From the IMG/VR virus record IMGVR_UViG_3300032222_000151, positions 54,810-118,809 of that record: a DNA stretch of 64,000 nt; one strand, 5' to 3'. Of the stretch, positions 1 to 45,367 are shown piece after piece (position 1 is the first letter of the stretch; each line of letters opens with the position of its first letter). The notes beneath the pieces were generated by a model that was not told the origin of the DNA, did no database searches, and saw only the letters and a list, made by a program, of their open reading frames with translations. Origin of the DNA: a virus. The position numbers were made by a program, and so were the translations under genes.

Positions 1-1
1 T

Positions 2-298: not shown

Positions 299-305
299 AT
301 TATAA

Positions 306-737: not shown

Positions 738-2086
738 TATAGAACATCCAAAGAGAATCTAAACTCTATATAGTTTGTTGTGTTTGCTGACTTAATGATT
801 GTTTTTGCATCTGCATTTTTAATTACAGAGTATCCAGTTAATCCGTAGACAGAGTTTGTTGATGTAACATTTTCTAGTCTAACCGCATCTAAACATACAT
901 AGAAATCTGATGTAGGCTCTTCGTCCTTAATTACGCATGCATATATTCTTACAGTATTGATTTCTGACCAAGAGAAGTCTGTGCTCTTGTACAAATCCTG
1001 AAGTTCTTTTGATACAACAAAATATCTATTTTCAGAAAAATCATTGTCTTCTCCAGAAACAACTGCCTCAAACCTAGCCCATTTTCCAGTTCCAAATGTT
1101 CCAGTTGATGAAAACTCTATCATGATTCGAACCTCATCTGGAATTGTTACTGCTTCTCCATTTTTATTTATAACAGAAAAAGCAAGCCGTAGTTCATCTG
1201 TTGGAGAGTTTTTGCTAAAGTCAATTGTTGTGTCGCTGAGTTGAATAAAGTTTGATCCAGTCTCTGCTATCAAATGATTTTCAGAGTTTATGGTTATGTC
1301 AGAATTGTTTCCTGATATTGCAAAAATATTATTTAAAAATCTACATCTTTCATATCGTGCAACTCTATCAGAGTTAGTAAAAACTTTATTGTCTGCATTG
1401 GTTTGAAAAACTGGATATATTTGATTTATTATGTTTGTTTCAACATCATTAATTAAATAGCCAGCAGACACAAAAGTACCAGTAACTGATGACGGGGCAG
1501 TTGATATAGTAAACGTAGTTGGCGTTGGCACTGTTGCAATGTTTTTGTTTGATAAATTAAATACAACTGGAGATATCTCAGATATTGAAATCTCAGTTCC
1601 TACAGATAGTCCGTGTGCTGCGTCAGTTGTGTATGTTATTGTTGTTCCAGATGCTACGGCATTTATTATTCTTACAACTCTATCATCTAGTGGCTCATAA
1701 ATAGAAGGAATTTCTGTTCCCTGTGATGAGTATTTCCATCCTTCTGAATCAGAAAATGAATAAACATTCTTGCTATCAAACGATCCAGCAGCAGGATTTG
1801 AGGCTGCAGAAAATATTCCTACCTCTGTTATCTCATATCTTTCCTGAGTTGGTAACTCTGCTGTAAGAACAACCTTTGATACCCCGCCCTCATTGACGAA
1901 TCCACGAGATATGATTGGCACACGAAACATTTCAAAGTCAAGTGATTTCTTGTCTGAGTAATCTCCTAGTGTTCCGTCTAGCGGTATAGGAGATGGTCCA
2001 CAGCCGACTGCAATATGGGAGGCATAAGATGGTGTTTGACCTACAAGGTACTTTGCTAGGATATTCTTACCTGTATTAGTTATCAT
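737..2086 (-). CDS. Baseplate/tail protein
   Basis: 449 aa; N-terminus MITNTGKNILAKYL..HIAVG resembles phage baseplate/tail-collar proteins; internal beta-barrel-like insert (ITYTTDAAHGLSVG). Confidence 0.6.
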   Translation of the reverse strand: MITNTGKNILAKYLVGQTPSYASHIAVGCGPSPIPLDGTLGDYSDKKSLDFEMFRVPIISRGFVNEGGVSKVVLTAELPTQERYEITEVGIFSAASNPAAGSFDSKNVYSFSDSEGWKYSSQGTEIPSIYEPLDDRVVRIINAVASGTTITYTTDAAHGLSVGTEISISEISPVVFNLSNKNIATVPTPTTFTISTAPSSVTGTFVSAGYLINDVETNIINQIYPVFQTNADNKVFTNSDRVARYERCRFLNNIFAISGNNSDITINSENHLIAETGSNFIQLSDTTIDFSKNSPTDELRLAFSVINKNGEAVTIPDEVRIMIEFSSTGTFGTGKWARFEAVVSGEDNDFSENRYFVVSKELQDLYKSTDFSWSEINTVRIYACVIKDEEPTSDFYVCLDAVRLENVTSTNSVYGLTGYSVIKNADAKTIIKSANTTNYIEFRFSLDVL

Positions 2087-2602
2087 TTAATTTCCTCCAC
2101 TATATATTGTACCATCATAGACATCTCCACTTGTCAACACCTGAACCTCTGCCTGCTCGCCATCTTTTATATTTATAAGGTTAATTATTAAGTCTCCACT
2201 TATTGGATCTATATATACAGACTTGCAATTTGGAACCTTCACACCGTCGACCAAATCATAACCATTTCCACATTCTGGCAAGTGATCTAATATAGAAAGA
2301 GATAAAGACTTAAAGAATGAGTCTGAAGACTGAAGCCTCAGAACATTGTTAGGATTATATTGCAAGTATAAATCTGTTAAGTTTTTGATTGGTGTGTATA
2401 TAATCTTTTGACCATTAACCAAGTCGTGTCTAGAGATTGTTGCTAGTTCGTGTCCACCAATATCTTCAAATATTAGGTCTGTCATTATATCGATAGACAT
2501 AACATCTTGATCTTGAAGAATTAAATCAGGAGTAGCAATTTTTACTGAATCATCATCTTCTGATGCTTTTGGATCTGGAAGATCTGCTGTTGCATTAACC
2601 AT
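2087..2602 (-). CDS. Hypothetical tail protein
   Basis: 171-aa acidic ORF abutting both neighbours in the tail operon. Confidence 0.6.
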   Translation of the reverse strand: MVNATADLPDPKASEDDDSVKIATPDLILQDQDVMSIDIMTDLIFEDIGGHELATISRHDLVNGQKIIYTPIKNLTDLYLQYNPNNVLRLQSSDSFFKSLSLSILDHLPECGNGYDLVDGVKVPNCKSVYIDPISGDLIINLINIKDGEQAEVQVLTSGDVYDGTIYSGGN

Positions 2603-2604
2603 TA

Positions 2605-5600
2605 CTATACCACCTCACTTAAGAACAATGTCATGTCTGGCCCATCTGGACCTTTTGTATAATCTATATTATATACTACAAACCTACTTGATGGTGATGA
2701 CACCATGCTTACACCCTTTTCTTCATAGTCAAGTGTAACGATATCTCCAAGTTGTATTGTTGGTATTGCAAAAATCTTAACTCCTACAGACCTTCTAGGC
2801 TTGGTTATTTTTTCAACAAGCCACTTCATCAAGGTGTTTGCTTCATCATAAGACTGAATATATGGTGTGTCTAAAGCAAAATCCATTTTACCGTATGTCA
2901 TTCTGCTTAACTTTATGTCCTGATAGTCTTGTTTAAATTTATATGGATTAGATATTAATTTTTCTGCAGCAAACTCAGGATTTGACAACATACTATTTCT
3001 ATTAAAATATTCATCAAGAGTTATCTTGTTTTCAGACTCCTGAGTAAATGTAACGCCCTGAACTCTAAGATAGTTTCCAGTTGTCTCATCTAGACTTATG
3101 GCTGTGTCTGTTGCATTAAATATTATGAACTCTGCGCCGTATGAGCCAGCCCTGAATCCTGATACAACATACCCCTTTATTTTATTAAAGGTTGGAGATA
3201 TTTTTGCTGTTAAGGCTGGGAAGGCTTTGTCATACTTAAAGTTAAATGTTGCTGCTTCTCTCATTATGCTTCCAAACTCTTCAAAATATATTTTATACTT
3301 TGGTGCTTCGGAAGTTCCAATTCCAGATAGATATGTGTTTTGAATTAGTCCGCTAAGAGCATACTTTCTGAAAGATTCATTGACATCAATATCTGAGTCT
3401 CCAAAAACTGAGTTGACTGGCGCACCAAGAGAGAATGTGGTGTTCTGTGAATAGTTGTTGCACAGAGCATAGACATTTTCAAACATAGCCCTTGATGATC
3501 CTCGTGAGAACAAAGCAATGTTTGAGTATACTGGCAGTGGCTCAAGGTCATCTACAGTCTTAATTAGTCTGCCATTCATGTATAGGTAGAATCTTCTTGT
3601 TCTCCCTATGTCTTCATATTCTACTGCTAAATCGTATACCGTTGGATTTTCCTCAGCAACAATTCTTGACTGTCCTGTAAATCTTCCATCGTCAACAGTG
3701 ATCTGACCAAGACCATCCCACAACTTTACTGGGATTGCCTTTCCGTTTTCTGATTTAATCTTATAAAAGAAAACATTGCTTACAGTTTCTCTTTCTTCTT
3801 CAGAAAGATTTCCAACTCCTAGAGCAGCAATTTCAAAGTAGTATCCTACGTTTGTTGTTGGATTTAGCATGAAAGCAAGACCACCAGAACCTCCAGATAT
3901 ATTAATGTTTTTATCTGGTGTGCTACCCTTTACAACATAATATGTAGAAGATCCATTTGATGTTTGTCCTCTGTCAGCATTGTTTTCTATCTTGCCAACT
4001 AGTCTCATTCTTGTTCCAAAATGCTTGTATTTGTTTTCCTCTAACGATCTATGAACGTAAGAGATAAAGTCTCTTGGCTTTTCTTTAGTGGTAAAGTTTG
4101 GTCCAGTAAGAGAGAGCGCTGAAGACTGAAGTGTTCCACTTTGAACCTGGGTAGAAGTGTTAACCTCTTCTATAAAAGATGTTGACATAAAGTTTTTAAT
4201 AATTCCGCTTCTAGAAGAAGTTCGTGCTAGAGCATCTGAAGAAACTCCAGCCCCAGTTGTTTTACCTGCTGCAGAAATTGTTGTTGTTGGAATTGTCAAA
4301 TCTTTTTCAAATAGATATTCTGATGCCATAGAGCATCCCTTAACGTTATCGTCTGACTTCCAGTAATCTGCTATTCCAGCAGAGTGTGCAACAATCTGAG
4401 TTCCAAACTGACCACGACCATGCTTTTGAACATCTCCATTTTGTAAGGCGATGACTCCATCCTTCTCAAAATACTTTGGCTCAGAATATATTCTTACTAG
4501 GCCAGTTGGATATATCTTTCCATTAAATGGCAACTTTGCAAAATAGTTTTGATAATCTTCTGTAGATGTTATCCACACATTGCCAAACCCAGAAACATTA
4601 TATTGCACTGCATCATACTTTATAATTTCTCCTTGAGAGTAAAAGTATCCATTGTATCGTGTAATCCAGTAGGCTGCTTCTCCAAGACTAAGAGTATTGT
4701 TTATAACAATATTGTTTTTAACAACTGGAACATCTGCTGAAAGATCTGAGTTTAAAGGAATTGCACTTAGAACATATGCTGATTGAGTTCCTACTTCATT
4801 ATTGATAGACTTTGTATTTTGACTTCCAGAAACTTCCCATAGCAGTGATGGCTTATATGTGTAGTATCTTTCATTATCTACAAGGCTTGCTTGTCTTAAA
4901 GATCCAATAGATCTTTGAATATGTCTTACCTTATAATTTATTACTCCGTCATTATATACAGAGTTGGCTTGTGTTGATACAGAAATTATGTTAGCCAACT
5001 TTGTCTTTGTTGTTTTGTTTTTAAGTTCTCGATCTTCTATAAAATCTTGTGTTCCCTGGAGTGCAAAGGTGGCTGGTCTTTGTGCTGCAGTTGGCATAAT
5101 GTAGTCTTTACTCATCATTACAAAGTTGTTGTATTCGTCAAAAAACATTGCTGTCTGAGTTGATATAGCCAAATCCTGAAGAACCTGTGCAACACTTTTA
5201 TCTGGAGCAACAAAAAAATATGGAATAATTATTTCTTTTTCGTTCGCCACTCTTTTAAATGTATAGTTTGAAAATCCTATATGGTCTAAAAGCAAAGATA
5301 CTGCAGAACTTACTGACACTTCTGTCATTAAAATTTCTGGAGCAGTTAATGACTCAAGGTACCAATACATATCTCTAAGAGACATTGACACACGCTTTGA
5401 CATTAGATCTTGCTTTGGAAATGAGTCTGAGTATAGCGTCTTTATTGGAACATAATAATCCCAACCATCCACATCAACAATTACCTCATAAAACTTAAAC
5501 TGAGCATGCCTGTTAATATACTTTGAAATAATGCTAGTTGTATTATTAGAGTTAAAGGCTTGATCATAATCAAATAAAGTTATCTGTCCATTTGAAGCAA

Positions 5601-6894
5601 TCAACTGTCCTACTGGCAAACCAGATAGTCCAAGGTCTGATGCACTTTTGTTTATTGAGTAGTCAAGTGTTTTGTCAGAAACATTTAGAACAAGTCTAGG
5701 GGAGATCTCAATAAGATCAAAAGTGGAGTCCTTTACGTTCATAGTATCTACAACAATTCTTACGCCACTGATATATTCAAACTCTCTATACTGTGGCTTT
5801 GAATCTATCATTCTAATAAACATATTTGGAGATGTTGCATCTGTTACAAAGTTAGTTAATCTATCTACAGTCTCATCTTGTATATACCATCCATACTTTG
5901 GCACCTTCACTACATACTCTGTACCGTCCCAAATATGGTACTCACCGATATCATTTTCATTTTCTTTAATCAAATAAGCATATCCAACTACTGACTGCTC
6001 TGGAAGAAGTGCTGCGCTTGTGTAGGTTTCTGCTATAACAAAGTTAAGTCTCCAGTCTTCTGGGACAACTAGGCCATATGCAATTTCTACATACCCATCG
6101 CTTTTTATTATTGAAGAACCATCTCTTCTTCTTATCGCTGGATCAAAAGATATAACAGTCTCCCAATTTCCGTCTTTAAGAAATTGAATTTTCCATTTAC
6201 TAGGAGTTTTTTGATTTAATTCGCCAAAGAATGGATCTGCATAAGCGCCTGACGGTGATGAGAACGGACCAAGGTTTTCTGTACCAGTATGCGTCTGCAT
6301 TTTAACCACAACTCTGTTTGTTGGTATTTTTTCTTTATACACAACAAAAGGACAGGCATCCTCAATTGAGTACTGGGATCCACGAACCTTTGATGCAATG
6401 CCATACTCCTGACCTGACTCTGTTCTGTATGAGGTCCAATATTTAAACTTGTCATTTCTGTCTGGCATATAGTATCTTGGTCTGTCTGCCATTACAAGAT
6501 TTGGATGATGAACTTTTCCATTTTCAAAAAATACTGCCTTGTTGATTCCAGATCTTGGTCTAAACTGGCCAAAGCAATCCTCTAAAGAATATAGACTTTT
6601 TAATTTTTCTTTCTTTGTTAGAAGAGTTGTTGGAATTCCTTCGTCATCAATCGTTCCATCAACAAGCACATCTGCATCTGTTGCTCCTGTATAAAAGTTT
6701 CCAGCATCATTAATATCAAAACTTGTAGGTAGTGATGAGTATATTGAACCAGACTGCGTTGGCCTATATCTATAATTTCCTATCTGCTTAATGTTTGTTG
6801 GAATGTTCATGTTCCACTCAGCAGTTATGATTGACTTATTTCTTATTACCGATGAAGTTTCTAAGAAGTTTTGTAAATCTTTATCTTCAAACAT
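2605..6894 (-). CDS. Large minor tail protein (baseplate hub/Tal-like)
   Basis: 1429 aa, second gene after tape measure; C-terminal IQLGDIVTLDY..FVVYNIDY resembles hub/central-fibre ends. Confidence 0.65.
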   Translation of the reverse strand: MFEDKDLQNFLETSSVIRNKSIITAEWNMNIPTNIKQIGNYRYRPTQSGSIYSSLPTSFDINDAGNFYTGATDADVLVDGTIDDEGIPTTLLTKKEKLKSLYSLEDCFGQFRPRSGINKAVFFENGKVHHPNLVMADRPRYYMPDRNDKFKYWTSYRTESGQEYGIASKVRGSQYSIEDACPFVVYKEKIPTNRVVVKMQTHTGTENLGPFSSPSGAYADPFFGELNQKTPSKWKIQFLKDGNWETVISFDPAIRRRDGSSIIKSDGYVEIAYGLVVPEDWRLNFVIAETYTSAALLPEQSVVGYAYLIKENENDIGEYHIWDGTEYVVKVPKYGWYIQDETVDRLTNFVTDATSPNMFIRMIDSKPQYREFEYISGVRIVVDTMNVKDSTFDLIEISPRLVLNVSDKTLDYSINKSASDLGLSGLPVGQLIASNGQITLFDYDQAFNSNNTTSIISKYINRHAQFKFYEVIVDVDGWDYYVPIKTLYSDSFPKQDLMSKRVSMSLRDMYWYLESLTAPEILMTEVSVSSAVSLLLDHIGFSNYTFKRVANEKEIIIPYFFVAPDKSVAQVLQDLAISTQTAMFFDEYNNFVMMSKDYIMPTAAQRPATFALQGTQDFIEDRELKNKTTKTKLANIISVSTQANSVYNDGVINYKVRHIQRSIGSLRQASLVDNERYYTYKPSLLWEVSGSQNTKSINNEVGTQSAYVLSAIPLNSDLSADVPVVKNNIVINNTLSLGEAAYWITRYNGYFYSQGEIIKYDAVQYNVSGFGNVWITSTEDYQNYFAKLPFNGKIYPTGLVRIYSEPKYFEKDGVIALQNGDVQKHGRGQFGTQIVAHSAGIADYWKSDDNVKGCSMASEYLFEKDLTIPTTTISAAGKTTGAGVSSDALARTSSRSGIIKNFMSTSFIEEVNTSTQVQSGTLQSSALSLTGPNFTTKEKPRDFISYVHRSLEENKYKHFGTRMRLVGKIENNADRGQTSNGSSTYYVVKGSTPDKNINISGGSGGLAFMLNPTTNVGYYFEIAALGVGNLSEEERETVSNVFFYKIKSENGKAIPVKLWDGLGQITVDDGRFTGQSRIVAEENPTVYDLAVEYEDIGRTRRFYLYMNGRLIKTVDDLEPLPVYSNIALFSRGSSRAMFENVYALCNNYSQNTTFSLGAPVNSVFGDSDIDVNESFRKYALSGLIQNTYLSGIGTSEAPKYKIYFEEFGSIMREAATFNFKYDKAFPALTAKISPTFNKIKGYVVSGFRAGSYGAEFIIFNATDTAISLDETTGNYLRVQGVTFTQESENKITLDEYFNRNSMLSNPEFAAEKLISNPYKFKQDYQDIKLSRMTYGKMDFALDTPYIQSYDEANTLMKWLVEKITKPRRSVGVKIFAIPTIQLGDIVTLDYEEKGVSMVSSPSSRFVVYNIDYTKGPDGPDMTLFLSEVV

Positions 6895-7532
6895 TATACT
6901 TCTTCCAAGGTAACTGAGACATTCCAGTAATCAAACTTGGTGCCTCTCTTTTCAACAGAGTATGAAAACTCTGATATAAACATCTCTACTAGTTGATTGT
7001 ATTGTGAAAGGTGGTCGTACGGTGCTTCTGTGCCCTTAAAAATACCCTTCCTGTCATATGCAAGGAATACCCAGAAAGAACCTTTGTGACCGTCGTACCA
7101 TTCAAGCATGTCTGCTCCGCCTGCGCCTCCATCAGTTGTGTAGGCTTTGTATGGGGAAAGTCCAGTCTCCTGATTAAAACTAGGGATGTTTGCATGTGAC
7201 CTTGATGGAATCATATCCCAACTAGTACTGATCTTCATCTTGTCTGCAATATGATAAGATCTCATACGACCATTTATCATTCTCTCCCGCTTTTCAATAC
7301 GCTCATCTGAAAACTCAAGAGGAGATCTATTGTCGTCTGTAAGCATTAAGAATTGCTCTATTAGCGCTGGATCTGTTATATCTACAGGATCTGCGCCTAC
7401 CTCAAGACCGTAAGGTATATATAAACCATTAATCAGGGTGCCAGAGTTTTCAGACCAAAGCATTCCGCTTGGTCTATGATATTTCTTACGACTTTGCATG
7501 TATGTATACCTTGGATCAACTTCATCTGCCAT
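6894..7532 (-). CDS. Distal tail (Dit-like) minor tail protein
   Basis: 212 aa directly after tape measure; RERMINGRMRSY and WNVSVTLEEV ending typical of this position. Confidence 0.6.
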   Translation of the reverse strand: MADEVDPRYTYMQSRKKYHRPSGMLWSENSGTLINGLYIPYGLEVGADPVDITDPALIEQFLMLTDDNRSPLEFSDERIEKRERMINGRMRSYHIADKMKISTSWDMIPSRSHANIPSFNQETGLSPYKAYTTDGGAGGADMLEWYDGHKGSFWVFLAYDRKGIFKGTEAPYDHLSQYNQLVEMFISEFSYSVEKRGTKFDYWNVSVTLEEV

Positions 7533-10500
7533 TTATGTTTACCCCCCTAATTCTTCTATCATCTACCTGCTTGATTGTTGACATTACTGCCTGTGCAATT
7601 TCATTTGGATTAGCATTTGTCTTGGCATTAACAGTTAATGTATATGTATTATTATACACTGAACCGCCAATGGAATCGCCCTTATTAATCTTTCTCATGG
7701 TGTCTACTCCATAAGAGTCTACTGCGTACTTGCTCATTATGAATTCTCCAGGAGTTAACATTGCTGGAACTGTATCAGTCCCCTTGGCAAAACCACCGAA
7801 TGAGAAGTACTTAGGAATTAGTCCTCCAGTTGACCAGTTTCCAAATGCATTTGCTGCTGCTGCATTACCGCCAAACTTCTTTAATATTTCTTCTTGCTTT
7901 CTCTTTGCATCCTTTGCTGCTGCTGCTGCACGAGCAGAATCTGCTGAAGCATTTTCTTTTGCTTTTTTGGCTGCTGCTGCATCTCTTGCTGCTGCATCTC
8001 TTACTGCTTTTTCTTGTGCAAGCATTCCAGGAGTTGGCTTCATAGCATTTTGTATTGCTGCAGCATTTTGTTGATCATACAAACTCTTCAAGTGAAGTCC
8101 TGGAGTTGTTCCAGCATTTTTCATTACGTCTGCAACATTCATATTTTGTTCAAATAGCATTAAGTTCTTTTTTGCATCCAGTGCCATTCTGTCTAGATCT
8201 TCTCTATGCAAAAGTGAACTGTTGTAGAATGGATCAGATGTGTTATTGTTCTTTGCTGGAGTTGTACCACTATTATTTTTTGAGCCCCCAGTAGATCCAT
8301 CTGGTGTGCTTCCAGCATTTCCTCTAAACTCTGGATTAGTTCCTGTAGAACCATTACTGCCTGGGTTTATTTTAGGATCATCATCTCCGCCTGTATCGGT
8401 TCCTGTAGCAGTTCCTGTACCAGTTACAGTAGGAGTTCCTGTAGTAGTTCCTGTAGGGTTTATTGGATCAGTATTAACCTTTTGATTTTCATATGCTGTT
8501 ATTAGTTTTGGATATATATCTAATGCATCCTGCATTGCTTTAACAAACTGAGCGCTCTTAATTCTTGCAAGATCTACAAGGTTTTTAATTCCTTCCCATT
8601 CTGCTCTTGTCTTTCCAAGAACAGTTATGCCATCAATCTCTTTCTTTAACTGAATCTCTCTTAGTCTTATTAATTCTTGTGCTGGCTCTAACTTTTTTTC
8701 TTCTATGTCAAAGATCTCATCTTGAAGTTTTTTAATTTCTGCTTCAAGTTGCTTTCTTGTTTTTCCATCTTTTGTCTTAACTCCTGAGAGTTCAAACTCT
8801 CTTGACTTCTCTAAAGCGTCCTTTTGCTTTGTGGCAGCATCTGCAGCCTCTTTAGCCCTCATGTCTTGAGCAGCCCTTGCTGCTGCTGCGATATCTCCAG
8901 AGGTCAGGGCTTCCGCTAGTGTTAACTGACCCTTTTGCTGTTCAGAAATTGCTGCATTTGCTTTTTCTACCTGATCTAGGGCAGCAATTCTTTCATCATA
9001 TTTTTCATTAATCTTCTTTTCTTGCTCTTCTATCTGCTTTAGGCCTGCCTCTTTGTCATCTATGTCAAACTGTTTTTTTGCAATTTCATTTTGAGCGGCT
9101 TCAATGTCTTTGTTTGCCTGTTTTGTATCAATATCAAACTTTAGTTGGTATTTTTTTTCTTCAACATCAAAAGCCTCTGTTGCCTTATTGAATCCGTCTT
9201 GGAATATTTCTTCCATTCCAGGAATAGTCATCTTCTTAATTTTTAGTTCTACATTGGCCTTATCCAAAGTTAACTGTAGCAACTTCTTAAATCTTTCACT
9301 GTCTATTCCAAACTCAAGCATAACTGCTTGAAGTGCTGGACTATCTAAAATTGCTGCTATTGTGTCACTAGACAATCCAGAAAGATCTTTTGTCATCTTT
9401 GCTAAAATCTTTGCTCTATTTTCTAAGTCAGTAGTTTCACCAGTAGCCAACTGTATTGCAGCCATTTCTCTCTGAGCCTTAGTTGCTTTCTTCGCTGCTG
9501 CAGTTATCTTCTTTAATTCTGCATCTGTTAGTCTCTTATTAGCAACTGCTGCAGCAAAAGTAGCATCTGCTACTGCTTCTAGGGCTACAGACCCATCAAC
9601 TCCAGCAGCCTGAAGTCTCTTTAGTGCTGTAACCTGGTCACCAATTTGTCTTGACATTTTTTCTTGTTCGCTTACAAACTCTCCAAGTTTGACTGACTGA
9701 AGGGCATCTCCAATGCTTCTAGCATTATCTTTTATCTTTGTTATGTTGCCCTTTTTGTCAAACTCAAACAGAGATTTCTTTCTCTTTTCGTATTCTTTTG
9801 GATCCATACCAGTAATAAGATCAATTAGGTCTTCTCCTGCTCCTAATGATCTCATATCATTTTCTATACCGCTAAATATTTTAATAGTCTTGCTTCCACC
9901 AAACAAGTTGTTCAGTGCCTTTTGTGATGCTCCCCAGCCTTCTGTAACCTTGATCTGGTTCTTTCTTACATCTCTTAAACGCTTAACTAAATCGTCTAGT
10001 TCTGACGACTGAACCTTATTGCCACCACCACTACTGCTGCTACTTGATGTTGGTGCGTTTGCAGTAATTTGTGTGTTATTAGTTACAGCCTTAAATCCTT
10101 GTGCTTCCTTGTACTTTTGGATTTTAAATGCAACGCTTCCCTTAACTCCAGCACCACCTCGTGGTCCAGTCTCTTTCAACCAAGCCTGGTAGTCGTCATC
10201 TGCTACGATCTGTGGATCTGGAATATTTATAACTGAAGCAATTGTAGTTGTGTAGACCTGCTTTTGATCATCTGTTAATGATTTAAAGTATGTCTCATCA
10301 AAGGCTGCGCTACCTCTTAGTTCTGGAATGATATTGTATACAGCATCTATAGTCTTTGGTTTTTGAGTTTCAATTGCATCTAGAACTCTATTTAATTCAT
10401 CGTATGCAGCCTTGTTTTTAGGATCAATGTAAAAGCCTACAAGGAAGTCAGAAGGAATTACTGAATTAAGATTATTTAGTTTAATTATATTCTTTGTAAA

Positions 10501-13500
10501 GTCAAGAGCGTCTGAGTCTTTTTCAAATGCCTGAACCTTAGTAATGAAGTCTGTCTGTACTGTCTTGTTTATAACCTTGTCTGCTCCAAGAATATTTTGT
10601 GCTGCCACACCAATTGATTCAGATGTCGCACCACTAAACTTGGTAATTATGTTCATCATCTTTGGAGCAATATCTTTATTCTCTGTTGCCATTTGCAAAA
10701 GACTTCTAAATACTGACGGAGGTATATCTCCACTTGCCATCTTTGCTTGAATTAAAAATTCCTGTCCGCTATCAATTAGTCCAGACTTTCTCAGGTTTCC
10801 TGCCTGAGTATTAACAACATCTAGGTAGGCCAACTCATTAGGATTATTTTTGTATTTTGCACTAGTTGCCTTCTGCATTCCACTCATCATGGACTCTTGA
10901 AGACCTCCTGCGCTATTGTATTGAGAAACAATGTCTGCCTGTATAGCACCTTGTGCAGCAGTCAACTGATTTCTTTTATCAATTAACTTTTCTTGTAGTT
11001 CGTTTGCTTCATTAATTTTGCCCTGAAGTCTTAACTCTTCAACCTTCTTTTCCATATACATATCAAAAGAATCAAGCATTTGCTTGTTTTGCTCCATTGC
11101 AATCTTGGCATCAACGGCATATGCAGCACCTAGTTCTGCAGACTGATTTGCAAACTTCTTTGAAGCAAAGTATCCACCGATTGCTCCTGCTGCTGCACCA
11201 ATTCCTCCACCAATGATTGCTCCTACGGCATTTCCCAAAACTGGTACAACAGATCCTAGGGCTGCACCAATTGTTGCTCCGACTGCTGCGCCGCCTGCTG
11301 CTGATGCTCCAATACCAACCTTTTGCATAGTTTTTTGTCCAGCAAGTTTTTGTAGAGGGTTTGCATTTTCAATATTTGAAAAACTTGTCTGAAGGTTCTT
11401 TTTGTTTTGCTCAACCATCTTTACTCTAACTTCAAGAGGGCTGTTGACCAAGTTCTCTCCATTTGGACCTAGCAACTCTTCTATCTGTGCAATAACCTTG
11501 ATGCCCAAAGACATATCTCCTGCTTGTCTTGCAGCATTCATTGCTAAACTCTTTGCTTGACCAATATCCATTGCACCAGACATTACTGCTGTTGATAGTT
11601 GGTCTGTTAGATCTGATACCGCTTGACCACCCTTTCCTGCAGCATTTTGCTTTGAAAGTCTTTCTGTTAAAGCCTTTCCTTCTTTTGTCTGAACAAATGC
11701 TTCTCCGTATGTTGTCTTTCCTGTTGCTGGTCCTAGCATTGAGAAAGAGTTCTTTCTTCTTAAGTCCATTTGTTCTGAGGCTGTTGCTTTACCACTAAAC
11801 TTTGCTATTTCTTGAATTGCAGAAGCAGAACCCTTAAACTTTTCGCTTTCCTCTAAAACCTTCCTTTGTGCATTATCAAATGCCATTCTTAGGGCAACGA
11901 ATGCACCAACTGTTGCTGTCAGTCCAATTGCAACTGCTGCCATTGGGCTCTTTAGCATTGGCAAAACCATTGCAAGACCCATCAAAGGCATCATAACCTT
12001 TTGAGAAATTTCTCCAACCTTGCCTGGAGCCATTGATCCAATCATTGCAGCACCTGATGCGATACCAACTGCACCAGCCATGCCCATACCTGGGCTCTTT
12101 CCTGCTGCTATTTTTGCTTGTTTCTTTGCTTCTCTATTTTCAAAGTATGTTTTTGTTCTTCCAGAAAGAGTTCTCTTCTTTGCTTCTTCTGCTGCCTTTT
12201 GATCAATAATTGATTGTTTGTATGCTACCTTTTCTGCTAACTTACTTCTCTTCATTTCTTTTTGAGCATTGCGTCTCATAGACTTTGCATCTGCATCTAT
12301 TGGTCCCGTGCCGTAAAGCGCTGTTCTTGAGGCTGCTGCCTTTGCCTGTGTTTTTGCTTCAGCCTTTTGACGCTTCTCTAATTGACGACGTACAGACTTT
12401 GCATCTGCATCAACTGGACCAGTTCCATAGAGCATGGTTCTTGAGGCTGCTGCTGCAGACTGAGATATAGTTGTTCCAATATTTGCACCGACTGCTCTTG
12501 CTTCTGCAAGTGAACCCTTTGCGCCATTTACTAGTGCTGTTGCAACTGCACCTTGTGATTCTGGTGCATCAGCAAAACCAGCAACGGTTACTGATCCCTT
12601 TGGACCCTGTACGACCCTAGTGCCCTTCTTCGGCTTTGCAGTTATTCTAGTATCTTTTGAACTTCCAGAAGATGACTTAACGCCTTTAGGCTTTGGCTTT
12701 GTCTTTGGCTTCTTTAGGTTGCCCTTCTCATCTTCAATCATTTCATCTGGCTTTACCAAAATAGATGAATGCTTTGCATGGATGGCTCTCCAGTCAACCT
12801 TCTTTCCTTCTTCAAGTCGATCTATCATTGCCTGATAAACCTTTTGGTCTTCTGGTCCAAGACCGAAACTCTTTATAGTTTCTTTTAGTCTTGGTAGAAC
12901 TCTATCAATTTCATTAATCATTGATCTGTGGTATTCATCTGCTGTCATCTTCTTTGCAATGTCTGCAGTTGCATTACCAAACCAGAAAGGAGAGTTTCCT
13001 GCTGCTGGGCCCTTTACTCCACTTAAATTCTTTTCTGCCATTTCAAGCATTGAAGGTAACTTTGCTGCGTAATCTCTTGCTCCAGATGCTCTGTCAAATA
13101 CTCCAGCAGTTCCCACATCTGCAAGAATGTTTCCTCCAAGATTACCCTTCTTTAGATCTTTATCTGCACGAAGATTTGCTGCAACAAGTTGTCTAAAGTA
13201 TTGATCTTTATTAAACTTCTTATCCATTTGGTTTGGATCAAACTTTGAGTCAAATGCAGACTCAAGAGCATACATTAACTTTCCAGTGTAAGGATCTTTG
13301 ATGATTCTTAGTTCTTGCTTTGGTGCATCTAGACCGTGTACATCTCTTGCAATCTGTGTTGCTCTTTGTTCTGCAATTGCTGACTTCAAGTCAACCATTG
13401 GCTTTACATAAACCTTCTTACCATCTGCCGTTTCAAATACACCAGAGGCATCACGAGCAGCAACATTGCTGTATCCAGTTCCCTTTGAAATTTGCTTTCC

Positions 13501-16500
13501 ATAGGTTGTTACTGGCTTTCCATCTATGTCTTCTCCTGTAAGGCCCTGAAGAACTCCTCTTGCTGCTTTTAGTAGTGCAGGCTTTGATGTGTTTCCAATT
13601 TTAACTGCGCCTGTGTCTCCACCAGATCTTCCAGTAGCAAATCTATCTCCAACAAGGGATCCATTATTCTTTTTGTCTGTAAGAGTCCAGTCTTTTGGAT
13701 CTTTAGAATTTTTCTTTCCGCTAACTTCTGGTCTTTCGTATCCAATAAGTTTTCCATCTTTGTCAGTTAAAACATCAAGCATTATTCCTGGTGCTTTTAA
13801 CTTTAAATCTTCAATTGCAGAGATTGTTGCTCTATTGGTTTTAGGTCCGTCTTTCTTTATTTTTTCAATAAGATCTTCTACAGACATCTTGCCGTTATAC
13901 TTAACACTTGCCTTTGATCCACCGCCAACACCTGCTACTGCGTAGATGCTCTCAATTGCTGGAGCAAGTCTAGGGTCTCTTGCAAGTCCGCCAAGAATTC
14001 CTGTCTTAAGGTTACCCATTCTAGAGTAGATGGTTTTATCTCCAATTAAGGTTCCATCTGGCAAACCCTGTAGTGAAAGAATAAGGTTCTTGCGAATCCT
14101 GTTAGTAACCTTTGCTGCTTCTTCAGCAGTCAAACTGCTTGGTGGCTTCATTAAGTTTGCAGTCATTGTTTCTACTGCACGAGGCTTTCTTAGTTCTGCT
14201 TCGTATTCTCTTACTTCTACACGATTGTCTCTAAGTCTTGCATGTACATCACTTGCAATGTCAAACCCAAGACCACGGTATCCAAATGCTTTATCAATGC
14301 CTCTTGCACCAAGATCCTTAGCCTTTCCTTCAAACTCTGGCGGAACCTGTCCTACACCCATCACTTGTGGGCTTGTTGCATGTGCAAAATCTGTTTCTAC
14401 TTTTCTTCTTTTACCCTTTTTAGTTACTCCAGTTGTTCCTTCACTAAATCCTTGAATGGTTTCTCCTGCAACCATTCTGGCAATTACTGGTCTGTTTGCT
14501 GGATCCTGTGCAGCCTGTGCTGGGATTACTGCTTCTCCAGGAGTAAGCATTGTTGGAACTGTATCTTTATTACCTGTTCCTGGAACACTTGTTGTACCGT
14601 TTGAGTATTTCTTTAATCCCTTTCCACCTGCACCACCACGGACTGGGCCTGTAAATCCAACTTGTGCAGCAATTGCTCTTCTGTATGCTGCAGCCAAAGC
14701 ATTAACCGCTGTTGTCTCAGAGGTAAATGTTTGCTTAAGTCTTGTATGTACTTGATCTAGAGATGCTGCAACGGCAGATGCTTCTAACTGCTCTTTAGTT
14801 AAATAAGAAGTCTGCTCTCCTAATACCTTACTTGCTGATCCTGCTCGATTGTACATCGACTTCATGTTTGCAAATAGTTTGATTATGTTTGCAGCAGCGT
14901 TAGCAATTAAACCAAATGTCATCAGAAGAATCGGACCAATTCCTCCAACTGCAACAGTAAATATAGTTAAAAACTTTTTACTTCCATCGCCCAAGTTATT
15001 AAACTTTTCCAAAACCTTTGATGCAAACTCAACGATAGGTGTTAGGGCCTTTAGGAACTGCTCTCCAACTGGAGCAATAGTAACCTTTAAATCTTCGATT
15101 GCTTTCTTAAACTTGTATGTTGTTGTGTCTTCGATCTTATCTAATTCTCGTTGTGACAGGATTGCCAGTTCTTCTGTGGTTGCCTGTGCAAGTCCAAGGA
15201 CTCTGGAAGCCTGTGTTCCTTGTGCTGTAACGTTCTGGAACAATGTAGAAAGTCTTGAGAACTGGAACTTACCAAACAATTGTTCAATTGCACGAGCACG
15301 GTTTAGAGGATCAAGTGTATCTAGTGCCTGTGCGAACCCTACTACAGTCTTTGTTACATCTCCTTGATTTGCTTCTACAATACCCTTGATGTTTACGCCA
15401 AGACCTGCTAAAAACTTTGATGCCTTTTCGGATGGATTAATTAATGATGCAAGACCAGACTTAAGTGCGTTAGCACCTTCTGATGCATTAATTCCACCTT
15501 CCTTCATTGCTGTTAGGAAGAATGCTAAATCTTCTACATCTCCACCTAGTTGCTGAACAACTGGTCCAGCCTTTGGAATTGCAATCGTTAAGTCTTCAAT
15601 AGATACAACAGTTTGGTTTTCAACAGAGTTAAGGAAGTCAATCTTCTTTGCTAGATCTTCTGCTGCTATACCAAAAGCATTTGTAATTGAGATTGTGGTT
15701 TCTAGAGCCTGTGCTTGCTCAACTCCACCAAGAACAGCAAGTCTGGTTGCTTGTGCAACCTGTGCAGTTAGTTCTGCACCTTGCTTACCCATTGCTGCAG
15801 CATCTGCAGCCATCTTCATTGTCTCTTCTACTGCAACGCCGTACTTGGTATATTCTTTTGCAAGGGTTTGAATCTGCTTAACCATTGCATCTGTTTCTTC
15901 TTGCGTTGTAAACATTTCACCGTAAACACGCTTAAACCTAATTGCCTGCTCTTCAAGTTTCATAAATGTCTTGGCAGCAGTTGTTCCAAGCATTGCCAGT
16001 GGAACTGTAAAACCAACCATCAACTGACGACCAGCCCACTGAGTGTTCTTACCAAAGTTAAGTAGGTTTGTTGAGCCTTGCTTTAATAATTGATTAAGTA
16101 GTTGCTGTCTTTGTGCAGCAATTGCTGTTTGTGTTCCAAGATTTTTCATGTCAAGTGTAAGAGGTCTTACAGCAATTGACTCTAGGGCTCCGTTAGCGCC
16201 TCTGCCCAACTTAATGTATTGGGTCTGGATATCCTTAACACGCTCTCGTGCAACCTTGTTGATTGTTTCAAATTCAGATCTAAAAAGTCTTCCGAATGTC
16301 TTTGTTGCAGCACCTGTATATCTAAAGTACTCTCTAGAGGTTAACTTGTTTCTCTCTAGGGCATCTGTAAAGTGCTCTGTACTTGATGTAACTTTTCTAA
16401 GTGATGCTTGAAATTGTCCTGTAGCATTTATGCTGTTCATCAAGTTTTGTGCTTGATTTGCTGCTACCGCTGATGCTGACGCACCAGACTTTGCCATTTG

Positions 16501-16599
16501 TGTATGGAAGGCTGATATCTGACGTTGTAGAAGTTTTAGACTTGCTAAAGCATCGGACGTATCAATATTTACATGAATATTGGATTGAACATCAGCCAT
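7522..16599 (-). CDS. Tape measure protein with internal kinase-like insertion
   Basis: 3025 aa; TP901-type core (AGPVVQQLGGDVEDL..EGANALKSGL), coiled coils, hydrophobic segments, C-terminal DTVPAMLTPGEF motif; follows tail chaperones. Confidence 0.9.
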   Translation of the reverse strand: MADVQSNIHVNIDTSDALASLKLLQRQISAFHTQMAKSGASASAVAANQAQNLMNSINATGQFQASLRKVTSSTEHFTDALERNKLTSREYFRYTGAATKTFGRLFRSEFETINKVARERVKDIQTQYIKLGRGANGALESIAVRPLTLDMKNLGTQTAIAAQRQQLLNQLLKQGSTNLLNFGKNTQWAGRQLMVGFTVPLAMLGTTAAKTFMKLEEQAIRFKRVYGEMFTTQEETDAMVKQIQTLAKEYTKYGVAVEETMKMAADAAAMGKQGAELTAQVAQATRLAVLGGVEQAQALETTISITNAFGIAAEDLAKKIDFLNSVENQTVVSIEDLTIAIPKAGPVVQQLGGDVEDLAFFLTAMKEGGINASEGANALKSGLASLINPSEKASKFLAGLGVNIKGIVEANQGDVTKTVVGFAQALDTLDPLNRARAIEQLFGKFQFSRLSTLFQNVTAQGTQASRVLGLAQATTEELAILSQRELDKIEDTTTYKFKKAIEDLKVTIAPVGEQFLKALTPIVEFASKVLEKFNNLGDGSKKFLTIFTVAVGGIGPILLMTFGLIANAAANIIKLFANMKSMYNRAGSASKVLGEQTSYLTKEQLEASAVAASLDQVHTRLKQTFTSETTAVNALAAAYRRAIAAQVGFTGPVRGGAGGKGLKKYSNGTTSVPGTGNKDTVPTMLTPGEAVIPAQAAQDPANRPVIARMVAGETIQGFSEGTTGVTKKGKRRKVETDFAHATSPQVMGVGQVPPEFEGKAKDLGARGIDKAFGYRGLGFDIASDVHARLRDNRVEVREYEAELRKPRAVETMTANLMKPPSSLTAEEAAKVTNRIRKNLILSLQGLPDGTLIGDKTIYSRMGNLKTGILGGLARDPRLAPAIESIYAVAGVGGGSKASVKYNGKMSVEDLIEKIKKDGPKTNRATISAIEDLKLKAPGIMLDVLTDKDGKLIGYERPEVSGKKNSKDPKDWTLTDKKNNGSLVGDRFATGRSGGDTGAVKIGNTSKPALLKAARGVLQGLTGEDIDGKPVTTYGKQISKGTGYSNVAARDASGVFETADGKKVYVKPMVDLKSAIAEQRATQIARDVHGLDAPKQELRIIKDPYTGKLMYALESAFDSKFDPNQMDKKFNKDQYFRQLVAANLRADKDLKKGNLGGNILADVGTAGVFDRASGARDYAAKLPSMLEMAEKNLSGVKGPAAGNSPFWFGNATADIAKKMTADEYHRSMINEIDRVLPRLKETIKSFGLGPEDQKVYQAMIDRLEEGKKVDWRAIHAKHSSILVKPDEMIEDEKGNLKKPKTKPKPKGVKSSSGSSKDTRITAKPKKGTRVVQGPKGSVTVAGFADAPESQGAVATALVNGAKGSLAEARAVGANIGTTISQSAAAASRTMLYGTGPVDADAKSVRRQLEKRQKAEAKTQAKAAASRTALYGTGPIDADAKSMRRNAQKEMKRSKLAEKVAYKQSIIDQKAAEEAKKRTLSGRTKTYFENREAKKQAKIAAGKSPGMGMAGAVGIASGAAMIGSMAPGKVGEISQKVMMPLMGLAMVLPMLKSPMAAVAIGLTATVGAFVALRMAFDNAQRKVLEESEKFKGSASAIQEIAKFSGKATASEQMDLRRKNSFSMLGPATGKTTYGEAFVQTKEGKALTERLSKQNAAGKGGQAVSDLTDQLSTAVMSGAMDIGQAKSLAMNAARQAGDMSLGIKVIAQIEELLGPNGENLVNSPLEVRVKMVEQNKKNLQTSFSNIENANPLQKLAGQKTMQKVGIGASAAGGAAVGATIGAALGSVVPVLGNAVGAIIGGGIGAAAGAIGGYFASKKFANQSAELGAAYAVDAKIAMEQNKQMLDSFDMYMEKKVEELRLQGKINEANELQEKLIDKRNQLTAAQGAIQADIVSQYNSAGGLQESMMSGMQKATSAKYKNNPNELAYLDVVNTQAGNLRKSGLIDSGQEFLIQAKMASGDIPPSVFRSLLQMATENKDIAPKMMNIITKFSGATSESIGVAAQNILGADKVINKTVQTDFITKVQAFEKDSDALDFTKNIIKLNNLNSVIPSDFLVGFYIDPKNKAAYDELNRVLDAIETQKPKTIDAVYNIIPELRGSAAFDETYFKSLTDDQKQVYTTTIASVINIPDPQIVADDDYQAWLKETGPRGGAGVKGSVAFKIQKYKEAQGFKAVTNNTQITANAPTSSSSSSGGGNKVQSSELDDLVKRLRDVRKNQIKVTEGWGASQKALNNLFGGSKTIKIFSGIENDMRSLGAGEDLIDLITGMDPKEYEKRKKSLFEFDKKGNITKIKDNARSIGDALQSVKLGEFVSEQEKMSRQIGDQVTALKRLQAAGVDGSVALEAVADATFAAAVANKRLTDAELKKITAAAKKATKAQREMAAIQLATGETTDLENRAKILAKMTKDLSGLSSDTIAAILDSPALQAVMLEFGIDSERFKKLLQLTLDKANVELKIKKMTIPGMEEIFQDGFNKATEAFDVEEKKYQLKFDIDTKQANKDIEAAQNEIAKKQFDIDDKEAGLKQIEEQEKKINEKYDERIAALDQVEKANAAISEQQKGQLTLAEALTSGDIAAAARAAQDMRAKEAADAATKQKDALEKSREFELSGVKTKDGKTRKQLEAEIKKLQDEIFDIEEKKLEPAQELIRLREIQLKKEIDGITVLGKTRAEWEGIKNLVDLARIKSAQFVKAMQDALDIYPKLITAYENQKVNTDPINPTGTTTGTPTVTGTGTATGTDTGGDDDPKINPGSNGSTGTNPEFRGNAGSTPDGSTGGSKNNSGTTPAKNNNTSDPFYNSSLLHREDLDRMALDAKKNLMLFEQNMNVADVMKNAGTTPGLHLKSLYDQQNAAAIQNAMKPTPGMLAQEKAVRDAAARDAAAAKKAKENASADSARAAAAAKDAKRKQEEILKKFGGNAAAANAFGNWSTGGLIPKYFSFGGFAKGTDTVPAMLTPGEFIMSKYAVDSYGVDTMRKINKGDSIGGSVYNNTYTLTVNAKTNANPNEIAQAVMSTIKQVDDRRIRGVNINGR

Positions 16600-16617: not shown

Positions 16618-16941
16618 TTAGTTATTTACAAGATTGCCAATTAAAGATGCGTCTGAAAGTTTGATTCCAGATGCTTCTTCAACGATCTTGTATACAGTTG
16701 GAAGGTCTAGATTTTCTTCTAGGGCTTCCTTGTCATCTGCCAATTCTGGCTTGTATTGTTGCATTGCAATTTGAACACAGTCAATAAGTAGATCCATTGA
16801 CTTTTCGTTATCTTCTGCTACCTTTGCGATATCTTCAAACTTCTTCATAAATGGACGAAGTAGAGATATCTTTAGTGGTCTTACCTTGATCTTTGTTCCG
16901 TCGATCAGAGTTACTGTTTTTTCTTCAGTGGCGGTTGCCAT
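16618..16941 (-). CDS. Tail assembly chaperone, short form
   Basis: 107 aa immediately upstream of tape measure; SD AGGAGG; paralogous to N-terminus of 16998-17678. Confidence 0.7.
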   Translation of the reverse strand: MATATEEKTVTLIDGTKIKVRPLKISLLRPFMKKFEDIAKVAEDNEKSMDLLIDCVQIAMQQYKPELADDKEALEENLDLPTVYKIVEEASGIKLSDASLIGNLVNN

Positions 16942-16997
16942 TTATTCCTCCTTATAAGGTTTAGTCAATTATACCATAGCGCAGGCTTATTTTTTTA

Positions 16998-17678
16998 TTA
17001 TTCATAAACTTCGTAATCAAGCCCCATGCCTATTCCAAAACCAGCCTTTTCAGCATTTACACCCTGTAAGGCTAGAATATCATTACCATCTGTGGTTTTA
17101 CCCTTGCTAAAAACTCTAGCCTTCATGTCTTCCCACTCGTTGCCACTGCCTGAGTTTTTATCCAGATCTACACCTTGCATAGCAGCGGAGAACTTCTTAT
17201 CGCTATAATCCAATTCTCTTTTTATCTTTAAAGTTGCTGTTAGTTCTTGCATAGACATTGACGACTCCAGTTCATCATAGTCTTTCCATATTCCAAGAAG
17301 GAATGCTTCTGACTCTAGTTTTGCCAAGTCCAATGTTTCCCATGATGAACCGCTATCTACCGCCTGATCTTTAACAGTATCATCTGACTTTTGATTAATT
17401 TTAATTCCTGCTGCGATATCTATAACCTCATAAATTGTTGGCAAGTCCAGACTGTCTTCAACATCTTCTGTAGTTTTAATTGATGGGCAGTACTGCTTCA
17501 TTGCGATTCTGGCACAGTCAACAAGAACAGCAATAGACTCATCATCTGTTTTTGCATTTTTAATACTTTCAAATACTTCTAGGAATTCTCTTAAATATTT
17601 TATTTTTAATGGTACAGCAGTAACGACTTGACCGTCTACTAAATAAAAATCTTTTTTGTCATAAATTCTTGTTGCCAT
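16998..17678 (-). CDS. Tail assembly chaperone, long (G-T-like) form
   Basis: Start moved to MATRIY (ATG 17678, 6 nt after TGGTATACT); between tail tube and tape measure. Confidence 0.7.
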   Translation of the reverse strand: MATRIYDKKDFYLVDGQVVTAVPLKIKYLREFLEVFESIKNAKTDDESIAVLVDCARIAMKQYCPSIKTTEDVEDSLDLPTIYEVIDIAAGIKINQKSDDTVKDQAVDSGSSWETLDLAKLESEAFLLGIWKDYDELESSMSMQELTATLKIKRELDYSDKKFSAAMQGVDLDKNSGSGNEWEDMKARVFSKGKTTDGNDILALQGVNAEKAGFGIGMGLDYEVYE

Positions 17679-17697
17679 AATATAAGTATACCAAACA

Positions 17698-17729
17698 GAA
17701 AGGCCCAACCCCGAAGGATTGAGCCTCTC
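17698..17729 (-). terminator. Hairpin with C(UUCG)G loop downstream of major tail gene
   Basis: Minus strand GAGAGGCTCAATCC-TTCG-GGGTTGGGCCTTTC, then TGTTT. Confidence 0.7.
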
Positions 17730-17744: not shown

Positions 17745-18428
17745 TTATGGTGTTACTGATGTCAATGAGCGGTCTACGATCTTACCGTATGATGCGTCAT
17801 CGTTTGGAAGAAGACGGAATGAAACTTCAAACATTGAAGCCTCGTCACGCTTAGCAGATACTGTAACATTCTCAATTGAGAGTGCACGGTATGCAACATA
17901 AATTCTTTCCTTTGGTGTTAGCGCAGAACCAGATCCTGGTCCTACTGCTACAAGGCCACGCTCTAGTGGAACGTCGCCAATATCGCCAGCAGACATCTTA
18001 AGAGTTGTTGCTCCTGATGCTGTTGACTTGTCTGAGTCATCTCCTGCAATTGCTACTAGAAGATTTTCTAGTGTTGCCTCTGCAAAAGCAGTATTTAGAT
18101 TAACTGTCATACCTTGCTTGAATAAACGAGCAACGTCAAGAAGTTGATCTACTGCTACTTCACCAAAATCTGGCTGAAAAGCAAGTTCCAAACCATTAGA
18201 TGTGTATCCAATGTTTGTGTAATCTTCTGTCCAGTCTGGTGTCAGAGTATCGTCTGACAACGTTTCCTTTATAGAAGTTGTTGACTGTGCGAATGAAGGT
18301 AGATCTAATGCTGCTTGAGCATCGGTAATCTTTCCATCTTCATCAAGTCCGATTGGGCCTGCATTATGTGTGAAAAGTGCTGCTGCACCCACGATAATGT
18401 TACTACTTGAACCACGGCTATATGCCAT
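17745..18428 (-). CDS. Major tail (tube) protein
   Basis: NIIVGAAALF, IGYTSNGLEL, AEATLENL motifs typical of siphovirus tail tubes; SD GAGGTG before MAYSRG. Confidence 0.8.
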   Translation of the reverse strand: MAYSRGSSSNIIVGAAALFTHNAGPIGLDEDGKITDAQAALDLPSFAQSTTSIKETLSDDTLTPDWTEDYTNIGYTSNGLELAFQPDFGEVAVDQLLDVARLFKQGMTVNLNTAFAEATLENLLVAIAGDDSDKSTASGATTLKMSAGDIGDVPLERGLVAVGPGSGSALTPKERIYVAYRALSIENVTVSAKRDEASMFEVSFRLLPNDDASYGKIVDRSLTSVTP

Positions 18429-18491
18429 ATTTCTCACCTCTTTCATTTTATTAAAAGGGGGTTGTTTCCTCGCTTTAATTATACTACCCGT

Positions 18492-40163: not shown

Positions 40164-40194
40164 TTTTTATTCCCCTTTTCTTATTCTATTTTTT

Positions 40195-42141: not shown

Positions 42142-42196
42142 TTTATATTCTCCTTATGGGTGCTGCCCATTAACTTATCTTATTATAACCCCTGTT

Positions 42197-42652: not shown

Positions 42653-42687
42653 TTACTACTCCTTCTTCCAACTATTTTTATTTTTTA

Positions 42688-44262: not shown

Positions 44263-44279
44263 TTTTATATCTCCTTAGT

Positions 44280-44726: not shown

Positions 44727-44759
44727 GTGGTAATTATAACACCCCTTTTAATAATACTA

Positions 44760-45355: not shown

Positions 45356-45367
45356 AATGTTATTATA

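Follow-up and report, generated by a model that had tools for sequence, protein, structure and literature searches.

We analysed a 64,000-nucleotide stretch of DNA (hereafter the window) from the virus record IMGVR_UViG_3300032222_000151, covering bases 54810–118809 of a 118,809 bp record with direct terminal repeats, and identified a predicted protein-kinase-like (PKL) domain inside its giant tape measure protein (TMP). Our preferred explanation, held with moderate confidence on the basis of sequence conservation and structural modelling, is that amino acids (aa) 1027–1287 of this TMP would constitute a catalytically intact kinase-like phosphotransferase of an undescribed family, carried as modular cargo in a variable slot and delivered with the TMP at infection. 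The kinase fold itself is well supported by the predicted structure and a delivered-kinase function is plausible; we infer the catalysis, topology, delivery, timing and purpose of the domain.

A predicted kinase-like fold with a conserved putative catalytic signature

Searching 1.84 billion cluster representatives (clusters at 50% identity) with aa 1000–1330 of the TMP (phmmer) recovered 167 representatives at E ≤ 1e-3, including 133 at E ≤ 1e-30, and the matches always spanned query residues ~28–288, i.e. aa ~1027–1287. Among the best 150 of these 167, on which the architecture counts are based, 115 were at least 2000 aa long, 100–114 had the TMP N-terminus in common (BLAST) and 82–85 its C-terminus. 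We aligned 130 domain-spanning representative copies together with the window copy (MAFFT, 131 rows, 23–63% identical to the window copy). Thirteen of the 275 alignment columns were at least 98.5% invariant, and these included all five proposed catalytic residues (K1066, E1077, D1148, N1153 and D1161; Table 1). Further invariant residues were G1042, G1053, P1093 and Q1137.

An initial annotation, made from the nucleotide letters of the window, had placed a HipA/CtkA-type kinase domain at 12780–13470 (aa 1044–1273) on the basis of five short motifs, which were all found in the translation, in the stated order, within aa 1052–1163. The place was right, and the extent slightly narrow relative to the conserved domain. 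The residues that it had designated as β3 lysine, helix-C glutamate and DFG-like aspartate proved to be invariant and lie on the expected elements of the structural model. Its catalytic DLKxxN motif held for the aspartate and the asparagine and failed for the lysine, which is found in 10 of the 131 copies, the position being otherwise occupied mainly by serine (53), glutamine (28) or glycine (22). At the sequence level, the signature of the family is thus D-x4-N, and not the D-L-K-x-x-N of Ser/Thr kinases. The hypergeometric probability that five residues picked blind would all fall inside the 13 of 275 invariant columns is ~1e-7. A chance motif pattern was also considered as an origin of the five motifs, and is ruled out by the invariance of the picked residues across the 131-row alignment.

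The AlphaFold2 model of the domain (aa 1021–1295, 25-row alignment, no templates) reached a mean predicted local distance difference test score (pLDDT) of 89.2 and a predicted template-modelling score (pTM) of 0.88. In model numbering, it comprises strands at 9–47 and 76–95, a helix at 51–66, and helices at 111–123 and 164–258 that form a helical C-terminal half. K1066 lies in the strand at 42–47, E1077 in the next helix and the D..N loop after helix 111–123, with the DxG motif eight residues further on. The structural and motif characters of the PKL fold superfamily are present in the model and the alignment, namely a two-lobed fold, a strand lysine with a helix glutamate, and D-x-x-x-x-N followed by D-x-G.

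Structure prediction followed by Foldseek, the check by which the kinase call could have failed, returned a kinase-like fold. Against the PDB, only kinases or kinase-like enzymes were retrieved among the matches listed (ranks 1–50). The top match was CtkA (E 3.8e-4, probability 1.00, template-modelling (TM) score 0.38–0.41), followed by CK2, HipA (entries 'MDT protein' and 'HipA(S150A)'), WNK3, the kinases of lanthipeptide synthetases and PI3K-gamma. We take 'MDT protein' to be HipA, and the matched chains of the complex and synthetase entries to be their kinase parts. Against BFVD, 11 matches were obtained at E ≤ 0.001 (E 6.5e-6 to 6.6e-4, TMq up to 0.52), consisting of phage proteins labelled PI3K/PI4K catalytic domain, of 1200–1340-aa proteins labelled as ADP-ribosyltransferase (Mycobacterium phage Onyinye) or portal, and of halovirus proteins; next came matches in Gordonia phages GodonK and Sixama, at E 2.8e-3 and 3.9e-3. 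The globular domain just upstream (domain X, aa 735–1026) provided an internal control: although confidently modelled, it had no PDB match at E ≤ 0.001 (best fold match E 0.27) and no kinases, and it yielded no Pfam, NCBIfam or atlas lead. The reading of aa 1027–1287 as a kinase fold is thus well supported by the model.

A variable cargo slot on a basic loop

TMPs are the rulers of tail length, and sometimes carry cell-wall-degrading domains. We compared the TMP of the window with 117 further giant TMPs that are 81–100% identical to it over the N-terminal 700 aa. The kinase-like domain was present in 111 of them, and the remaining six hold, at the same place, three unrelated cassettes of ~330–390 aa. 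That relatives might swap the domain had been raised with the initial annotation, and these six proteins bear it out. The variable slot starts just past aa 679–717, and likeness to the domain-less relatives stops at aa 694–727. The three alternative cassettes had no Pfam match and contained no hidden kinase (hmmsearch --max, scores < 0). Because it is replaced in this slot by unrelated cassettes, the domain appears as exchangeable cargo and not as a part of the ruler.

Other relatives revealed further arrangements. A cytidylyltransferase-like domain is added in the same slot of one TMP (P0229, aa 728–856), another combines an M23 peptidase with the kinase-like domain (P0140), and a third ends in a C-terminal LysM (P0155). 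In P0140 and P0115, the kinase-like domain occupies other positions, much further along the TMP. We also observed a 652-aa protein (P0149) in which the kinase-like domain is followed by a HAD phosphatase domain; this protein may be a fragment.

As had been described from the letters of the window, hydrophobic blocks, defined here as 19-aa Kyte-Doolittle windows at or above 1.5, stand on either side of a basic insert that holds the domain. The region between blocks 1 and 2 (aa 610–1480) has an isoelectric point (pI) of 9.8 and a net charge of +47, and holds domain X, the kinase-like domain and a basic linker (aa 1288–1480, pI 10.3, net charge +22). This arrangement is recurrent: of 102 full-length-like representatives, 91 have the kinase-like domain flanked by hydrophobic blocks, and in 88 of these 91 the loop is net positive (median +35). 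Domain X was kept in 18 of 21 related loci, at 49–68% identity. As a separate observation, the 20-aa motif repeated in the linker, SRTxLYGTGPxDADAKSxRR, also occurs after the alternative cassettes of four relatives (P0262–P0265).

The tape measure protein gene and its setting

The gene is a stop-free open frame of 3025 codons in the translation of the window, on the minus strand (protein P0001; Table 1). Its N-terminus matched PF10145 (E 2.3e-25, 90.1 bits, cut-off 33.2), TIGR01760 (111.9 bits, cut-off 28.8) and phrog_10030 (6e-101), and is 81–100% identical to at least 120 giant TMPs, and 30% identical to the TMP of Streptomyces phage BillNye. The late module runs in the order portal, maturation protease, major capsid protein, Ig-domain protein, two phrog_10504 genes, the giant open reading frame (ORF), a 212-aa gene and a 1429-aa minor tail protein. 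BillNye has the identical gene order, and the equivalent gene is annotated there as tape measure protein. Both an N-terminal TMP domain and a place between the genes in chaperone position and the distal tail genes, as expected of TP901-type TMPs, were thus found, and by sequence P0001 is the tape measure protein of a 118.8-kb siphovirus encoding WhiB. A frame artefact or a gene fusion was considered and is ruled out, the same long ORF being found in more than 100 relatives. The G+C content of the window is 35–42%.

The phrog_10504 genes would be tail assembly chaperones, judging by position only, and may form a duplicated or frameshift-related pair (16618–17708, minus strand). Within the TMP, the internal copy of the ~40-aa C-terminal motif could be a processing or docking site, or could be the trace of an ancestral event in which a short TMP was fused to an extension. 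A Thr/Gly/Ser/Asn-rich low-complexity stretch (window 7900–8360, minus strand, about aa 2745–2900) is common to only 1 of the 150 representatives.

Elsewhere in the window, a 1246-aa ORF (26105–29845, minus strand) lies between the gene for ribonucleotide reductase and that for the portal. Its syntenic counterpart in BillNye is a hypothetical protein of 810 aa, and the ORF could encode a head-internal or ejected protein. It had no Pfam or PHROG match, hence no tie to the ADP-ribosyltransferase- or portal-labelled kinase carriers of BFVD. A second tail-fibre-like block with fn3, collagen-repeat and CBM_5_12 domains (39195–54282, minus strand) is located far from the main tail module, and includes a nucleotide-sugar epimerase gene (46573–47634).

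Table 1. Features of the tape measure protein, its kinase-like domain and the adjacent tail genes, in window coordinates.
Feature	Residues (aa)	Window position	Strand	Basis
PKL domain (predicted)	1027–1287	12739..13521	-	match limits, alignment, AlphaFold2 pLDDT 89.2, Foldseek
SGVFETADGKKVYVKP (holds K1066)	1052–1067	13399–13446	-	motif search of translation
AIAEQRA (holds E1077)	1074–1080	13360–13380	-	motif search of translation
HGLDAP	1088–1093	13321–13338	-	motif search of translation
LRADKDLKKGN (holds D1148, N1153)	1143–1153	13141–13173	-	motif search of translation
ILADVG (holds D1161)	1158–1163	13111–13128	-	motif search of translation
Predicted ATP-phosphate-binding Lys (β3-equivalent)	K1066	13402..13404	-	131/131; model strand 42–47; codon checked
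Predicted helix-C Glu (salt bridge to K1066)	E1077	13369..13371	-	131/131; model helix 51–66
Putative catalytic loop	D1148-x4-N1153	13141..13158	-	D 130/131, N 131/131; after model helix 111–123
Putative DFG-equivalent metal-binding motif	D1161-V-G1163	13111..13119	-	D 131/131, G 128/131
Giant TMP gene	1–3025	7522..16599	-	PF10145, phrog_10030, TIGR01760; tail-module position
TP901-type TMP N-terminal domain (PF10145 core aa 246–443)	201–544	14968..15999	-	Pfam/NCBIfam
Hydrophobic block 1	541–577	14869..14979	-	Kyte-Doolittle
Internal copy of TMP C-terminal motif, DTVPTMLTPGE...	679–717	14449..14565	-	BLASTP vs aa 2942–2979, E 7e-7
Upstream domain X, globular	735–1026	13522..14397	-	AlphaFold2 pLDDT 84.7, pTM 0.74 (aa 730–1030)
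Basic linker, two 20-aa repeats SRTxLYGTGPxDADAKSxRR	1386–1405, 1424–1443	12271..12444	-	sequence inspection
Hydrophobic block 2	1539–1574	11878..11985	-	Kyte-Doolittle
Hydrophobic glycine-zipper block 3	1767–1809	11173..11301	-	Kyte-Doolittle; PF13488 E 1.5e-4, below its cut-off
C-terminal TMP motif, DTVPAMLTPGE...	2942–2979	7663..7776	-	BLASTP
Two genes upstream of TMP, both phrog_10504; longer also phrog_10474		16618..17708	-	PHROG match
Ig-domain protein, major tail protein position		17745..18446	-	phrog_2175 2.6e-31; syntenic BillNye gene annotated major tail protein
Tail-tip genes downstream: 212 aa and 1429-aa minor tail protein		2605..7532	-	phrog_10359 9.7e-60 (1429-aa protein)

Host and occurrence

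Judging from the gene content and sequence affinities of the phage, its probable host is an aquatic actinobacterium of low GC. A gene for a WhiB-family protein lies elsewhere in the phage genome, outside the window (L023, G000:C1:24271-24444; PF02467, 40.4 bits), and among 14 control genomes this model was positive only in Corynebacterium; whiB has been used as an actinophage marker (PMC10914622). Streptomyces phages of the BillNye group have major capsid proteins with ~41% identity to that of this phage, and a single related contig, found in a profile search of genome contigs, was binned in an Acidimicrobiaceae metagenome-assembled genome.

The BillNye TMP (2102 aa) is alike only over aa 66–585, at 30% identity, and two profile searches, which had no positive control and thus show little, detected no kinase-like domain in it. 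In 50,697 phage records, no match was found to a 2.5 kb query (blastn) or to the domain (tblastn). Two distant family members were also searched against these records by tblastn: P0145 had no match, and P0149 matched only through its aa 303–438 linker, in TMP genes.

Proposed mechanism and competing explanations

We favour the following sequence of events. At infection, the TMP would be expelled from the tail, and its hydrophobic blocks at aa 541–577, 1539–1574 and 1767–1809 would lodge in the cytoplasmic membrane and form a DNA conduit there. The basic loop (aa ~610–1480, net +47) would then reach the cytoplasmic side, bearing domain X and the kinase-like domain. Once there, the latter would refold, bind ATP-Mg via the K1066–E1077 pair, N1153 and D1161, and use D1148 as catalytic base, and a host target would be phosphorylated ahead of any phage gene expression; the substrate might be a protein or a lipid, and the purpose could be host takeover or anti-defence, as proposed with the initial annotation. 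Basic loops tend toward the inner, negatively charged face of the membrane, and presentation at the cytoplasmic face is suggested because the domain is borne on the basic loop of an ejected, membrane-inserting protein. Cytoplasmic exposure is further implied by the need of a kinase-like domain for nucleotide. In turn, an active phosphotransferase is suggested because the nucleotide-binding, metal-binding and catalytic residues are invariant among copies that are 23–63% identical to that of the window.

Several observations weigh against this explanation. No kinase was recovered from the domain with Pfam (E ≤ 1), NCBIfam (E ≤ 1) or PHROGs, and neither a kinase nor CtkA was found among PDB sequences at E ≤ 10 by phmmer and two profile searches, the latter giving only chance-level matches (designed helical proteins, an S-layer protein and parvovirus capsids). 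HipA_C (PF07804) was detected neither in P0001 (E ≤ 1) nor in the whole phage genome (E ≤ 10), control genomes being positive, and PF00454 neither in P0001 nor in the whole phage genome at E ≤ 10. Aligning the 131-sequence profile with E. coli HipA (hhalign) gave a non-significant probability of 0.24%. The lysine typical of the DLK of Ser/Thr kinases varies across the family. At the structural level, TM-scores to solved kinases are low (0.2–0.41, root-mean-square deviation 12–20 Å) and E-values modest, and the gathering of the five residues in one cleft is predicted from their secondary-structure elements. In addition, no cultured phage with the domain was BLAST-detectable in the 50,697 phage records, and the six close relatives without it show that it is dispensable for tail assembly and for infection as such. 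Three folded copies of ~29 kDa are also too big for the lumen of a siphovirus tail, so the domain would have to travel unfolded or sit elsewhere. Finally, a TMP segment would have to reach the cytoplasm, where ATP is.

The Hanks-type Pkinase model (E ≤ 1) had no match either, in P0001 or in 25 family members, and the language-model leads were weak (HipA_2, LepB_N and PI3_PI4_kinase clusters at 0.92). As far as sequences can tell, the domain is kinase-like in fold, keeps its catalytic signature intact and forms its own family, outside HipA, CtkA, Hanks-type kinases and PI3K/PI4K. The 'HipA/CtkA-type' label of the initial annotation is accordingly to be kept for structural resemblance (Foldseek) and dropped for family membership.

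Some of these matches bear on the identity of the substrate. The domain could be a PI3K/PI4K- or LepB-like kinase of lipids or small molecules that acts on a component of the membrane or envelope at the insertion site and helps to open or stabilise the DNA conduit. The BFVD neighbours labelled PI3K/PI4K, PI3K-gamma among the PDB matches, the LepB_N and PI3_PI4_kinase atlas leads and a PF00454 match in one of the 25 family members (E 0.0082) all point in this direction, as do the unconserved Ser/Thr-type catalytic-loop lysine, the tethering of the domain between membrane-inserting blocks and a probably actinobacterial host, actinobacteria being producers of phosphatidylinositol, an example of a possible substrate. 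However, the top solved structures (CtkA, CK2 and HipA) are protein kinases, PF00454 matches neither P0001 nor the phage genome, and the PI3K/PI4K labels in BFVD are automatic annotations; we regard this alternative as unlikely. A more specific form, in which the TMP would serve as an injector inserted in the membrane, with a slot for interchangeable effectors on its basic loop, and the cargo would be a PI3K/PI4K-like lipid kinase acting on phosphatidylinositol-type lipids of an actinobacterial host at the entry site, opening or protecting the DNA channel, seems to us improbable.

The moment of action is a separate matter. Late in infection the cell produces numerous TMP copies, and the domain might work in the producing cell, as part of new TMP that is still unassembled, by phosphorylating phage or host proteins, with a role in regulating tail assembly, TMP processing or lysis timing, or in the blocking of late defences. 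ATP is certainly present there, no folded domain would have to pass through the tail lumen, and the results agree with either time of action. Nevertheless, a free-standing gene would suffice for such a role, relatives without the domain evidently still make tails, and its embedding between membrane-inserting blocks (91/102), in a slot with swappable cassettes, resembles delivered cargo, leaving this explanation with a low probability in our judgement. The kinase fold is also known from other chemistries and from pseudokinases. A module that lacks catalysis or is not a kinase, either a pseudokinase scaffold or spacer binding nucleotide, a host protein or a tail protein, or an enzyme of other chemistry such as AMPylation, would agree with the low TM-scores to solved structures. 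Yet pseudokinases typically lose the K, D, N or D that are here kept, with the glutamate, in 130–131 of 131 copies, and no AMPylating or glutamylating kinase-fold enzyme was among the matches listed from PDB and BFVD, so that we consider such a module very unlikely.

Relation to known systems

Among solved structures, CtkA of Helicobacter pylori (3akj/3akk/3akl) is the best match (E 3.8e-4 to 3e-3, probability 0.94–1.00, TM 0.33–0.41), with a compact kinase-like fold of similar size (~275–296 aa). Identity between the two is nevertheless 12–14%, neither sequence nor profile searches matched them at E ≤ 10, and CtkA is a free-standing bacterial protein whereas the present domain lies inside a phage TMP. 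E. coli HipA (3dnv/3dnu/3hzi/3tpb) has a similar fold (match probability 0.66–0.94) and the same succession of D-x4-N and a metal-binding aspartate, D1148 and N1153 aligning with its D..N loop in the non-significant hhalign alignment. In contrast to HipA, the phage domain is without the HipA N-terminal domain or a HipB partner, and its context is different. The best structural neighbours overall are the phage proteins of BFVD (from Onyinye, GodonK, Sixama, haloviruses HHTV-1 and HSTV-2, and uncultured Caudovirales), which, compared by their automatic labels, are kinase-like domains in large multidomain phage proteins, several from actinophages. They differ from the present domain by a low identity (13–17%) and by their carriers, which are labelled portal or ADP-ribosyltransferase-type and not TMPs.

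TMPs with muralytic cargo (M23, LysM), of which the relatives P0140 (M23) and P0155 (LysM) are instances, likewise hold an enzymatic or binding domain inside the ruler protein. The target of these domains is peptidoglycan, outside the membrane, and in contrast to a kinase they require no ATP.

According to Iyer et al. 2017 (PMC5512222), the kinase domains of phage 'polyvalent proteins' are predicted to pass into the host together with the DNA and to modify host proteins; these kinases have lost the whole C-terminal subdomain and are found in (pro)phages, both those of Verrucomicrobia-Chlamydia and those of Bacteroidetes. As described there, they resemble our case in being kinase-superfamily domains of huge multidomain phage proteins with cassette-like variability. 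The model of the TMP domain, however, keeps a helical C-terminal half (164–258), which argues against membership, the comparison being made by description. The term 'tape measure' occurs 0 times in PMC5512222. The same source cites the T7 protein kinase gp0.7 as phosphorylating host proteins early in infection; gp0.7 differs in being expressed from the entering genome and not carried in the virion.

No kinase-like domain in a TMP was described in the parts covered of the full-text literature, which included PMC7824862, PMC8876498, a 2026 preprint surveying PKL proteins and few subscription journals. Enzymes carried as TMP cargo, and kinases within giant phage proteins, are known kinds already, and the sequence family appears to be new.

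Significance

If the delivered-kinase explanation is true, part of the ejected TMP would enter the cytoplasm, and host components would be modified ahead of phage genome expression. The occurrence of a large family (167 clusters) in a slot of exchanged cassettes suggests a polymorphic effector system within a tail protein. If the domain is instead a lipid kinase, the phage would remodel host membrane lipids by a virion-borne enzyme. A delivered enzyme of this kind would bear on the fate and role of TMPs after ejection, and on how phages might pre-empt host defences.

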